Part shown: positions 7,193 through 24,899 of the stretch, in pieces
Layout of the letters: each line of letters opens with the position of its first letter
How positions within the stretch are numbered: the stretch's first letter is position 1
NCBI GenBank assembly: GCA_038821645.1
Contig: JAWBDT010000010.1
Location: 1 to 63,093, forward strand
Reading direction: 5' to 3'
DNA: 63,093 bases
From: Ignisphaera sp.
GTDB taxonomy: Archaea > Thermoproteota > Thermoprotei_A > Sulfolobales > Ignisphaeraceae
Translations under genes and position numbers: made by a program
The notes under the pieces: generated by a model
Told to the model about the DNA's origin: nothing
Seen by the model: the letters and a program-made list of their open reading frames with translations, nothing else
Databases searched by the model: none

Positions 7193-7194
7193 CA

Positions 7195-7269
7195 GGGGCC
7201 GGGGGTGGCCCGCCCCGTGCACATAGAGCCCCGTGACAACGGGACCATATTTACACGGGCACCGAGGCT
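7195..7269 (-). ncRNA. unidentified GC-rich structured RNA
   Basis: GC island in AT-rich intergenic DNA; long hairpin whose G-U pairs work only on the minus strand; TTTATTTA 22 nt upstream. Confidence 0.7.
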
Positions 7270-7290
7270 AGAAATAACTTTCTCACCCAG

Positions 7291-7306
7291 TAAATAAATT
7301 TATCTA
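7291..7306. promoter_or_regulatory. back-to-back TATA elements for two divergent ncRNAs
   Basis: TTTATTTA (minus, 7291-7298) and TTTATCTA (plus, 7299-7306), each about 22-24 nt from an RNA 5' end. Confidence 0.5.
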
Positions 7307-7330
7307 CTTTCACAAAACTTTCGAAATTAG

Positions 7331-7379
7331 ATGATGAATGACTCCAATACCGATAGATGACGATCTCAACCCTTACTGA
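7331..7379 (+). ncRNA. box C/D sRNA
   Basis: ATGATGA-12nt-CCGA-3nt-ATGACGA-12nt-CTGA; canonical archaeal dual-guide spacing. Confidence 0.85.
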
Positions 7380-7769
7380 AATCAAGTAAAGTTTGTAATA
7401 TGATTAGACATCTTATATGATAAAGAGACCGATATTCAGGATTTTAAAGTAGAATATATATAATGTATTAACATATTATTGTTTTAATATATTGTTACTC
7501 TATCAACTTAATTCTTATTACTTAATCAAAAGCTTAGACCATTGGTTCAATCTATATCATTAACTACGTCTTGCACTATTTATCTATGTTAATAATCTAA
7601 TTCTTATACTTCATCAGATGCCATTAACTGGTAAGGGAGAATCTATACCAGTATTTTCCTCATTTACTAACACTATATCCAGAAATTATTTTGAATAACA
7701 TAAACCTATGAATACCTCTATTCAAGAGACTAATCTCTACAGCTAAAAGAAATGTTCTTTAGAGTAACA

Positions 7770-8210
7770 TTAATACACCATGTTATTACATTTAACATTA
7801 TACTCTCCATACTTCTTCATCAACTCAATAACATGTACACCATTACCTAGAAAATCTGCCTTCTTGATTATATGAAAATCGTTTCCAGTATACATCACTA
7901 CACCTATGGGTCCTCCTATTTTCTTCACGATCCATGGATAGAGAATTACGGGAACAACAACATACAGGTAATCAGCTATATGAATCCTTTTACTAAGCTG
8001 ATCAATAAGCATTATTTTAGGTCTCGTCTTTATCTCATATACATGAACTAAAGGCCTATCCATAGCAGGTTCTATAGCTAGAACATCTATTTCTATTCCA
8101 TTTAGCTTTATATTACCATGAACCTTATATCCAAGACTACAAAGCTTATCTATGAATAATCTTGCAATAACTTCTTCATTCAACTTGAATTTATTCAGCT
8201 TCAGCACCAC
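7770..8210 (-). CDS. PD-(D/E)XK nuclease superfamily protein
   Basis: N-terminal helix EE, EIDVLA and VYEIK motifs. Confidence 0.7.
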   Translation of the reverse strand: MVLKLNKFKLNEEVIARLFIDKLCSLGYKVHGNIKLNGIEIDVLAIEPAMDRPLVHVYEIKTRPKIMLIDQLSKRIHIADYLYVVVPVILYPWIVKKIGGPIGVVMYTGNDFHIIKKADFLGNGVHVIELMKKYGEYNVKCNNMVY

Positions 8211-8418
8211 AAAAACGAAGATTATTCGGAATTAAATGTCACACAGTTAAAACAAACTAGAACTTGTTAACATTTTAACATTTAAAATATTCATTTATAA
8301 ACATACACTAGTTAATACCTATGGAAAGAAACGATCAAAGTAAACTAGGTATTACTTGACCCAAACTTAGTAAATTATGACTCATAACCTTATTATATCA
8401 GGTGGTAACAATATAACA

Positions 8419-8598
8419 ATATAGGTGTGGGTCAGACCTACTGTAATGTAGTGGTTTAATATTGAGTAAATAGATGTATATCACCAGGTGAACCTACCTC
8501 AAGGGTGGTAAAGCCCTAGGGGTAGGTTTATCTGGTGATATACATCTATTTACTCAATATTAAACCACTACATTACAGTAGGGACTATACATTTGTAT
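8419..8598 (+). repeat. long inverted repeat / putative hairpin ncRNA
   Basis: 8437-8487 is the exact reverse complement of 8532-8582 (51 bp); pairing extends inward and outward with G-U pairs on the plus strand. Confidence 0.9.
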
Positions 8599-8684
8599 CT
8601 AGTGTTTTTGTACCTTCTATATACAATATATTATCAACTAGCTTGTTACTGATATCATGATTCATGATAATAAGGTAATTATTT

Positions 8685-9221
8685 ATGAATCTGTGTATAA
8701 TTATGTTTCGATCTCAAGGAGTTGAGGAAGAGGTGATAAGATCATGTAAAACTGTTCTTGAGGATGTTTTTGTTGATTGTAGTGTTGAGATATCTAAGGA
8801 TGTTGTGGTTATTCCTGAGTATTTCTATAACTATGATAGGGGTCAGTATCTTGCTGATGGTATTGTCTATAGAGTTTCAGAGTTGGTTAAAATGGATTGT
8901 TTTGGTATTCTTTTAGCTAATGTTGATGCATATGTTGAAGGTCTGAATTTTGTTTTTGGTTTAGCTATACCGTGGTTAAGATCTGCTGCTGTATTTCTTT
9001 ATCGTTTAAGGTTTAGTACTAACTTCGATAATTATTTGCATAGAGTAGTGAAAGAGGTTATTCATGAACTTGGACATCTTCTAGGTTTAGAACATTGTAA
9101 GTCTCCTGGATGTGTAATGAATTTCAGTAATAGTGTTTATGATGTAGATAAGAAAGGTTATATGTTCTGTGATAAGTGTTTGAAGAAGTTGAGTAAGAAA
9201 GGTATTAGGACATCTGTATAG
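8685..9221 (+). CDS. amzA: archaemetzincin Zn metalloprotease
   Basis: HELGHLLGLEHC..CVMNFS..FCDKC; LNFVFG. Confidence 0.93.
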   Translation: MNLCIIMFRSQGVEEEVIRSCKTVLEDVFVDCSVEISKDVVVIPEYFYNYDRGQYLADGIVYRVSELVKMDCFGILLANVDAYVEGLNFVFGLAIPWLRSAAVFLYRLRFSTNFDNYLHRVVKEVIHELGHLLGLEHCKSPGCVMNFSNSVYDVDKKGYMFCDKCLKKLSKKGIRTSV

Positions 9222-24799: not shown

Positions 24800-24899
24800 G
24801 CCGCGGTAGTATAGCCCGGTCAAGTATGCGGGCCTCTCGAGCCCGTGACACTAAATCAAAGTGCGGGAGACCCGGGTTCAAATCCCGGCCGCGGCACCA
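24800..24899 (+). tRNA. tRNA-Glu(CUC) with 22-nt intron (24848-24869) at position 45/46
   Basis: Anticodon arm CGGGC-CT-CTC-GA-GCCCG; BHB-like motif CCCG/CGGG helix with UGA and AGA bulges; T arm GGTTCAAATCC; CCA. Confidence 0.95.

Follow-up and report, generated by a model that had tools for sequence, protein, structure and literature searches.

A hairpin RNA gene with a bulge-helix-bulge-like base and its adjoining nuclease gene in Ignisphaera and related archaea

The motif known as bulge-helix-bulge (BHB) in archaeal RNAs consists, in the description given by the available part of PMC4090602, of a helix of 4 bp with a bulge of 3 nt on either side; in precursor tRNAs the helix holds the first two bases of the anticodon and the bulges hold the splice sites. 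According to the accessible text of PMC7714728, such sites are known in tRNAs, in rRNAs, in the crenarchaeal cbf5 mRNA, and in one haloarchaeal 5' untranslated region (UTR), and a 2025 survey of archaeal circular RNAs reports, in the portion available, BHB-linked circles only for rRNA and tRNA (PMC12558985). A further case, taken from an excerpt of PMC4731332, is the signal recognition particle (SRP) RNA of Thermoproteus, which is permuted and matured by BHB cutting and circularisation. The subject of this analysis is a long hairpin on the plus strand of a 63,093-nt stretch of Ignisphaera sp. DNA (contig JAWBDT010000010.1 of assembly GCA_038821645.1, positions 1 to 63,093, here called the window). 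The hairpin, at about 8420-8610, is almost certainly a real structured RNA gene; its base has the layout of a BHB motif and it adjoins a gene for a 146-aa protein of the PD-(D/E)xK nuclease superfamily.

The archaeal BHB introns and the stems of pre-rRNA, which give pre-16S and pre-23S species in circular form, are the closest described systems and share with this locus the recognition structure, the predicted enzymes, and the predicted circular fate, as far as the available text of the two sources goes (PMC4090602, PMC7714728). Unlike the BHB introns, however, the "exons" here would be only a few nucleotides beside a candidate promoter and a T-run, and what is excised is a single long perfect helix that contains neither an open reading frame (ORF) nor an embedded known RNA. 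With nothing useful on either side of the motif of the hairpin, the product of the gene would be the excised piece itself. The Thermoproteus SRP RNA is similar in being an RNA of the same archaeal phylum, neither tRNA nor rRNA, for which the excerpt of its source describes BHB maturation; in contrast, it is a rearranged universal RNA of known function, whereas the hairpin RNA has no Rfam similarity. None of the BHB cases compared is a stand-alone gene yielding an excised hairpin, or has a dedicated nuclease neighbour.

Other systems resemble the locus in shape or in gene arrangement. Viroid-like and obelisk-like RNAs are rod-shaped, circular, and highly base-paired, whereas the hairpin RNA is chromosomal, single-copy, and much shorter, is predicted to arise through host splicing enzymes and not through RNA replication, and has no member in viral contigs. 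Bacterial 6S RNA is a rod-like RNA of about 180 nt, conserved in structure and free in sequence, which binds and holds the sigma-70 holoenzyme and needs a central open bubble; the fold of the hairpin RNA has no such bubble, and 6S RNA in turn lacks both a BHB motif and a dedicated neighbouring gene. In type III toxin-antitoxin systems (ToxIN-like), an endoribonuclease toxin gene is preceded, on the same strand, by an antitoxin RNA made of tandem repeats, in contrast to the hairpin RNA, which has no direct repeats, is accompanied by a PD-(D/E)xK protein, and occurs in variable orientation to it. The stand-alone PD-(D/E)xK nucleases of the MmcB-like and sce7726-like groups have the fold of the 146-aa protein over nearly its full length, without a significant sequence match, and we know of no MmcB-like or sce7726-like nuclease family linked to an RNA gene. 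As regards retrons, no reverse transcriptase was found by Pfam among the neighbours of the hairpin in the window or in 11 related loci. The locus is best filed as a BHB-bounded RNA which forms a gene of its own and combines a perfect stem of hypervariable sequence with an obligatory partner, the nuclease.

The hairpin in the window

The core of the element is an inverted repeat in which 8437-8487 is the perfect reverse complement of 8532-8582 over 51 bp; a preliminary description of the window had claimed this exact complementarity, and direct comparison of the two segments bears it out. The full inverted repeat has arms of 69 nt each (8437-8505 and 8514-8582) which are 94% complementary and separated by a spacer of 8 nt. 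On the plus strand, 8400-8612 folds at -132.9 kcal/mol in comparison to a mean of -52.1 kcal/mol for 200 shuffled sequences, none of which is as good (z = -18.0); the minus strand of the hairpin region reaches -107.9 kcal/mol and the departures from perfect pairing are thus G-U pairs of the plus strand, in agreement with what had been described. In a 170-nt construct of the hairpin there are 70 Watson-Crick pairs, six G-U pairs, and one A-A mismatch. The minimum-energy fold contains the apex already recognised, made of the GGUAAA loop, its AGGGU/GCCCU closure, and the GUGAACCUACCUC/GGGGUAGGUUUAU segment, and the AGA at 8434-8436, the box TTATTATA at 8390-8397, and the TTTTT at 8605-8609 are all located as claimed. 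The pairing proposed for the lower part, 8419-8433 with 8583-8598, holds in the single-sequence fold, where it has a 1-nt bulge, but not in the register conserved over 25 relatives, which consists of the helix 8430-8433/8583-8586, a bulge at 8587-8589, and an outer helix 8427-8429/8590-8592. The features in this conserved register, together with the adjoining gene, are as follows.

7770 to 8210, minus strand: lineage-specific gene for a 146-aa PD-(D/E)xK nuclease, adjoining the RNA gene
8390 to 8397, plus strand: TATA-like box TTATTATA, candidate archaeal promoter of the RNA gene
8427 to 8429, plus strand: 5' strand of the outer helix, GUG, pairing with 8590-8592
8430 to 8433, plus strand: 5' strand of the central 4-bp helix, GGUC, pairing with 8583-8586 (GACU)
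8434 to 8436, plus strand: 5' bulge, AGA, 3 nt, with an endonuclease cut predicted after 8435 by the canonical BHB rule
8437 to 8582, plus strand: inner hairpin, 146 nt, about 69 bp, of hypervariable sequence between species
8497 to 8522, plus strand: conserved apical stem-loop, with the loop GGUAAA at 8507-8512
8583 to 8586, plus strand: 3' strand of the central 4-bp helix, GACU
8587 to 8589, plus strand: 3' bulge, AUA, 3 nt, with a cut predicted after 8588
8590 to 8592, plus strand: 3' strand of the outer helix, CAU, pairing with 8427-8429
8605 to 8609, plus strand: T-run TTTTT, candidate archaeal termination signal
8436 to 8588, plus strand: closed rod RNA of 153 nt, the product predicted after excision and ligation, as suggested by the BHB geometry and by the presence of EndA and RtcB in the genome

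In the relatives, A/T-rich boxes are found about 25-45 nt upstream of the hairpin base and T-rich or pyrimidine-rich tracts lie 3' of the hairpin. The switch from A-rich to T-rich sequence noticed at this site is present and is explained as the change of coding strand between divergent genes: the hairpin sits between the minus-strand gene at 7770-8210 and plus-strand genes from 8685 onward, and the GC skew flips from about -0.3 to +0.4 across 8250-8500. Between the TATA-like box and the hairpin base there is an 8-nt tandem duplication (ACAATATA twice, at about 8409-8424) which is missing in the closest relative; the spacer, or predicted 5' leader, is longer in the window genome, where it can pair with the 3' trailer.

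An assembly fold-back, which the preliminary description proposed to exclude, is not indicated by independent data. Four runs from four studies yield Logan contigs which cover the locus, with no joints, in the pieces 8100-8466, 8437-8487, 8458-8561, and 8553-8900, and the contig 8458-8561 crosses the hairpin apex with 0 differences; the pieces of two of the runs (X5 and X6) do not differ, and these two may represent a single data set. The runs in which the locus occurs are hot-spring metagenomes (DNA). The whole hairpin is not spanned by any single Logan contig, as expected of de Bruijn unitigs over a palindrome, and the same architecture is repeated in 17 other genomes of the family and in nine metagenome contigs.

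In its own genome of 1.57 Mb the hairpin has one copy by blastn, by a k-mer scan for inverted repeats, and by the covariance model described below, and therefore it is not a miniature inverted-repeat transposable element (MITE), which had been put forward as an alternative; this judgement is one of copy number, target-site duplications not having been separately looked for. The search for other copies and for viral matches of the stem, also suggested earlier, gave only the self-match in the own genome by blastn, with no target of the stem elsewhere in it, and no match in phage and plasmid collections. In IMG/VR, 25 stretches fitting a peptide pattern included 0 relatives of the nuclease and the two matches of the apex pattern covered just 22 nt of the model, so that no family member was found in viral contigs.

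In Rfam, nothing at the locus reaches the gathering threshold, the best matches being microRNA-precursor models at 38.1 bits (threshold 80), and over the whole window only two tRNAs reach it. An SRP RNA identity for the hairpin was rejected, as a canonical archaeal SRP RNA is found elsewhere in the genome, on contig C2 (L076:372-680, 177.8 bits). In helix 5 of the latter, about 25 bp form an AT-rich segment of perfect pairing, and this segment is the sole other long inverted repeat in the k-mer scan of the genome apart from runs of about 100 N inside contigs, either scaffold gaps or withheld sequence, which occur at nine places (for example C15 at about 30898 and C8 at about 29207) and dominated the scan. 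Long AT-rich perfect helices seem to be the way in which this hyperthermophile makes sequence-free spacers.

The RNA family: stem and base

Ignisphaera is placed by the NCBI taxonomy in the Desulfurococcales of the Thermoproteota. A blastn search against relatives returned one close orthologue with 86% identity and several other matches limited to the apex of about 26 nt; the loci matching in the apex only, once folded, each give a rod hairpin of similar size with a wholly different stem. Across 325 genomes of the order the 26-nt apex pattern turns up in six, which all belong to a single genus (0 for the reversed control), and looser versions with a GNUAAA-type loop are found across the family. 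A scan for inverted repeats detected a hairpin adjoining the nuclease gene in 17 of 20 family loci; in an eighteenth, in genome G012, the hairpin was missed by 10-mer seeds and found by 8-mers and by a covariance model. This model, built from 25 members on base and apex pairs only, is positive in 18 of 26 family genomes, the window genome included, with one sense locus in each. Among genomes of the order at least 92% complete it is positive in 14 of 151, namely in 11 of the 12 from the family and in 2 of the 23 from a second family, the eleven other families having none. Metagenome contigs gave 53 stretches with a 20-nt apex pattern, nine of which are true members by the covariance model (58-94 bits). 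So far, the members of the RNA family, about 35 in number, are limited to Ignisphaera and its family and to two genera from a neighbouring family in that order. A search of the main texts of the literature returned no description of this RNA.

The inner hairpin of the relatives ranges from 90 to 153 nt and in GC content from 0.35 to 0.74, with near-perfect pairing and unrelated sequence between species; the suggestion that relatives might keep the structure while the core varies was thus followed, and the core sequence is entirely different with the structure preserved. The whole-hairpin MAFFT alignment (A3) is not structure-consistent in the variable stem, where pairing was counted sequence by sequence, and only the base and apex pairs were scored on A3. 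The 25 hairpins together contain 1481 Watson-Crick pairs and 159 G-U pairs, along with 32 A-C mismatches and 14 1x1 mismatches of other kinds. Since every G-U pair becomes an A-C mismatch when the opposite strand is read, the 5:1 excess of G-U pairs indicates selection on the RNA of one strand and not on the DNA; the cruciform-forming DNA site that the preliminary description had offered as a second alternative is disfavoured by the same 159:32 ratio. In 23 of the 25 members the sense fold is more stable than the antisense one.

The rate at which the stem changes was judged from close species, in which hairpin identity and third-codon-position identity of the neighbouring gene are 0.88 and 0.90, 0.86 and 0.80, and 0.91 and 0.95, respectively; their similarity means that the sequence of the stem is essentially unconstrained. 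Base pairs compared in 12 close pairs of hairpins were unchanged in 632 cases, changed on both sides and still paired in 34, changed on one side and still paired in 50, unpaired in 34, and in gaps in 12, and the pairs lost come mostly from the two most distant comparisons. The compensated changes between strains are mostly transitions, able to pass via G-U intermediates. In one close species pair a 1-nt deletion is compensated in both arms and in another a 5-nt block is compensated. In the stem, shape alone matters: the sequence drifts about neutrally and selection on the RNA keeps the pairing. A K-turn or K-loop reading of the apical loop was dropped by eye, because the tandem G-A arrangement of that motif is absent.

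The base, which extends the earlier description together with the co-inherited nuclease gene, is the most widely conserved part of the hairpin, being kept across two families. Its order, 5' to 3', is 2-4 nt that are mostly G, a 4-nt segment, a 3-nt A-rich bulge, the stem, the complementary 4-nt segment, a second A-rich stretch of 3 nt, and CC with a pyrimidine-rich tail. The central 4-bp helix is 97% paired over 25 sequences and its outermost pair is CG in 10, GU in seven, GC in three, AU in two, and UA in two; the third pair in the window itself is a compensated U-A. In alignment A3, all 25 sequences have G-C at the outer-helix pair 3/198, and the pair 2/199 is GC in 19, UA in two, and GU in one. 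For base and apex together, none of 500 shuffles attains the score observed for pairing or for covariation, and both scores collapse when the partners are slid by 1-3 columns. The 5' bulge is ARA, AGU, GAA, AGC, or AAC in the 25 relatives and the 3' bulge is ARR, AUA, ACA, or CAC. All 25 parsed members have the layout of a BHB motif, in which either strand of a 4-bp helix is followed on its 3' side by a bulge of 3 nt.

The pre-tRNA layout given in the available part of PMC4090602 implies that on each strand the helix segment precedes the bulge, which is the order found in the base of the hairpin. An internal control is offered by the tRNA-Glu(CUC) gene of the window (24800-24899, plus strand), in which an approximately 21-nt intron occupies a non-canonical site in the variable-loop region: the same layout is present there, with the helix CCCG/CGGG, the bulges UGA (5') and AGA (3'), and an inner helix. 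Both EndA (97 bits) and RtcB (575 bits) are encoded in the own genome, with scores that exceed the Pfam cut-off, and EndA of this archaeal group is reported, in the accessible text of PMC5829648, to accept relaxed motifs.

The adjoining nuclease gene and other features of the window

The 146-aa protein has no match at threshold among Pfam, NCBIfam, or PDB sequences. The sce7726 model gives 15.7 bits (E = 0.011), below its cut-off of 70, the models of Hjc (PF01870), UPF0102 (PF02021), and MmcB-like proteins (PF06319) do not match it at the gathering score, and a profile search of PDB sequences with the nuclease returned 0 matches. Among 18 homologues searched against Pfam, UPF0102 matches eight, with a best E of 5.5e-4, and Hjc matches one (E = 0.029). 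The AlphaFold2 model of the protein, with a mean predicted local distance difference test (pLDDT) score of 85.9, has a restriction-endonuclease-like fold that is structurally most similar to 3dnx (Z 13.8, with 125 of the 146 residues aligned and a root-mean-square deviation of 2.7); XisH, AF1548, PaqCI, NucS/EndoMS, and Hjc are further matches by Foldseek and VIA-align and the structural neighbours in the Atlas are clusters of the sce7726 and MmcB types. E39, D41, E58, and K60 are invariant in the 18 homologues. The modelled fold, the acidic residues, and the ExK motif place the protein in the PD-(D/E)xK superfamily. The family is tiny, with nine clusters in an indexed search and, in an exhaustive search of 1.84 billion proteins, 26 representatives at E <= 1e-10, beyond which roughly 90 more remote relatives score between E = 1e-8 and 1e-3.

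The nuclease gene and the RNA gene occur together. The 146-aa ORF adjoins the hairpin in all six loci first compared; the nuclease is present in 20 of 26 family genomes, one weak match counted, and in the second family the protein profile finds strong homologues (E ~1e-35) in 10 of 42 genomes, belonging to two genera, and weak matches only elsewhere. The ten loci with strong homologues all carry the RNA, one of them weakly (21.8 bits), and the two genes are also adjacent in seven of seven named loci of metagenome-assembled genomes (MAGs) and in nine of nine metagenome members. Every RNA-bearing genome has the nuclease gene alongside; the RNA was never found without it. In the main family the two genes are head-to-head (divergent), about 220-300 nt apart; in one genus both are on the same strand, with the RNA 106-118 nt upstream of the nuclease gene, and in another genus the arrangement is tail-to-tail (convergent) with a slight overlap. 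The other neighbours vary, being in Ignisphaera a SAM hydroxide adenosyltransferase gene and an archaemetzincin gene, the latter in either orientation, and including Nre, EamA, PAPS reductase, PIN, PLD, HypD, HD, and TrkH outside this genus. Since the adjacency survives rearrangement, a functional link is favoured over a shared promoter.

A pseudogenised state of the nuclease in genomes G012 and G205 was considered and rejected, as the flagged TAG lies upstream of the gene and both genes are intact. In G012 (locus L053) an isoleucine codon stands right after this TAG at the position of the ATG of the relatives, which may reflect either the use of an unusual start codon or the loss of the start; the adjoining RNA gene is intact (97.9 bits). 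The archaemetzincin gene (Peptidase_M54), at 8685-9221 in the window, is co-directional with the RNA in the window genome and in G004 and is convergent to it, at no more than about 20 nt from the hairpin, in a further five genomes of Ignisphaera (L020, L023, L024, L025, and L053), a difference in orientation which points to a local inversion.

Two other features lie in the window at lower positions than the nuclease gene. A candidate C/D box small RNA is found at 7328-7380 on the plus strand, where C, D', C', and D box-like motifs were seen by eye; its best Rfam match is sR5, at 22 bits, below the threshold of 40 (E = 0.0087). The AT-rich gap of 577 nt in which it lies (7193-7769), without an ORF of at least 60 aa, also contains a GC-rich island at 7193-7270 that folds at -39.5 kcal/mol on the minus strand (z = -2.6; plus strand z = -1.1), has no Rfam match, and may be another small RNA.

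Explanations and significance

The explanation that we favour starts from a stand-alone gene for a structured non-coding RNA at about 8420-8610 on the plus strand, whose primary transcript of about 170-190 nt would run from the TATA-type promoter to the T-run and fold as one long hairpin. An almost fully double-stranded, separately transcribed RNA outside the standard archaeal classes had already been proposed for the locus, and the comparative data support it, with one locus per genome, no Rfam match, strand-specific pairing, an A/T box upstream, and T tracts downstream. EndA would cut both bulges, after 8435 and after 8588, and RtcB would join the ends of the excised 153-nt piece into a circle. 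The product would be a covalently closed, thermostable, almost fully double-stranded rod of about 69 bp, capped on one side by the apical loop and on the other by a junction loop of 7 nt, and across the family its predicted size is about 130-160 nt. Selection would act on length class, pairing, and the two loops only. The mature RNA would probably act with the 146-aa nuclease, our preferred guess being a stable ligand that would bind and hold, regulate, or direct the enzyme; less likely, the RNA would be the substrate of the nuclease.

Several observations weigh against this explanation. At the base, the outer helix is short, with 2-4 bp in 22 of 25 members, 1 bp in two, and 0 bp in one, next to a very long inner helix; two of the 25 members, those of G004 and G009, need a 4-nt 5' bulge or one unpaired base; and the minimum-energy form in the window is a competing 11-bp extension with a 1-nt bulge. 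Sense and antisense fold energies are near equal or reversed in two of 25 members (L059 and L067). The shortness of the outer helix and the different register of the minimum-energy fold are also what a linear hairpin RNA, uncut by EndA, has in its favour: in such an RNA the base (helix, bulges, and GG/CC clamp) and the apical loop would be protein-binding sites and the stem a rigid spacer like SRP helix 5, whose perfect segment indicates that this organism puts long perfect helices into ordinary linear RNAs. The base, however, has all the geometric elements of a BHB motif, the helix-then-bulge polarity, and covariation, and it is the part most conserved across the two families; EndA of the group is also reported, in the available portion of PMC5829648, to tolerate relaxed motifs. 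A linear RNA has a real, if minor, chance of being the correct reading. As regards the nuclease, G022 has a divergent homologue, 29% identical to the window protein, without a detectable RNA, which is the sole such case; moreover, adjacency is no proof of a physical partnership and, with a fold of the DNA-nuclease type, RNA binding by the protein is hypothetical.

The fold and the catalytic residues that the protein shares with DNA nucleases and junction resolvases lead to an explanation in which the DNA palindrome is the functional object, a hairpin or cruciform site for the adjoining nuclease, for instance in a selfish or recombination module, with its arms kept alike by DNA template correction. 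The perfect 51-bp core and an adjacency independent of orientation fit it; the compensated 1-nt indel and 5-nt block between close species, which could also stem from DNA-level correction between the palindrome arms, fit it as well. A cruciform should nevertheless lack the strand bias seen in the fold energies of 23 of 25 members and in the G-U to A-C counts; the base is asymmetric, with bulges and a G-U-containing helix, and covaries as RNA pairs, and the compensated changes are mostly transitions possible via G-U intermediates. The element is also single-copy and was found in none of the viral, phage, and plasmid collections searched, and the palindrome is an improbable candidate for the functional object. 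Equally improbable is a toxin-antitoxin-like or defence module in which the nuclease is a toxic effector and the hairpin or circular RNA its antidote, in the type III manner. It would agree with a small nuclease and a structured RNA moving as a unit amid varying surroundings, with their presence in only two genera of the second family, and with the virus-rich clusters among the nearest language-model and structural neighbours of the protein, and it is at odds with one copy per genome, with a presence in 11 of 12 family genomes at least 92% complete, with the lack of any member in the same viral, phage, and plasmid collections, with an RNA free of tandem repeats, and with a protein outside the known type III toxin families, PADLOC not having been searched. 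A removable leader or intron of a downstream mRNA has a precedent in the BHB intron of the 5' UTR of HVO_1309, described in the accessible text of PMC7714728, and could be imagined for the genus in which the RNA precedes the nuclease gene by 106-118 nt on the same strand; the downstream gene varies, however, and is on the opposite strand within about 20 nt in at least five Ignisphaera genomes, and T-rich tracts follow the hairpin. This reading is very improbable, in common with a MITE or an assembly artefact, to which the single copy and the architecture reproduced by contigs of independent studies and by 17 other family genomes are opposed.

That the locus is a structured RNA gene is the firmest part of the favoured explanation. 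For BHB processing and circularisation of the RNA, which the geometry of the base and the genes for EndA and RtcB suggest, we lean slightly to the positive side, and the functional coupling of the RNA to the nuclease, to which their constant association points, appears marginally probable; a role of the RNA as regulator or ligand of the nuclease is put forward with considerable doubt. Taken as a whole, an independent transcript converted by EndA and RtcB into a closed rod RNA working with the nuclease is an explanation that we hold in even balance. Its boldest form, a viroid-shaped double-stranded RNA minicircle made from a dedicated gene by the tRNA-splicing machinery and serving as RNA subunit or regulator of a dedicated nuclease, would be a new kind of archaeal ribonucleoprotein, with selection on nothing in the RNA but its rod shape and two end loops, and is proposed tentatively, as a possibility on the doubtful side.

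If the explanation is true, archaea would use the splicing pathway to make a functional circular RNA on purpose, from a gene whose only product is the excised "intron", and its perfect double-stranded rod would be suited to near-boiling temperatures and to the presence of exonucleases. The strict linkage to the RNA is the first functional lead for an uncharacterised nuclease family, and the locus is a natural example, of unusual clarity, of a helix that changes at the neutral rate with pairing as its only constraint.

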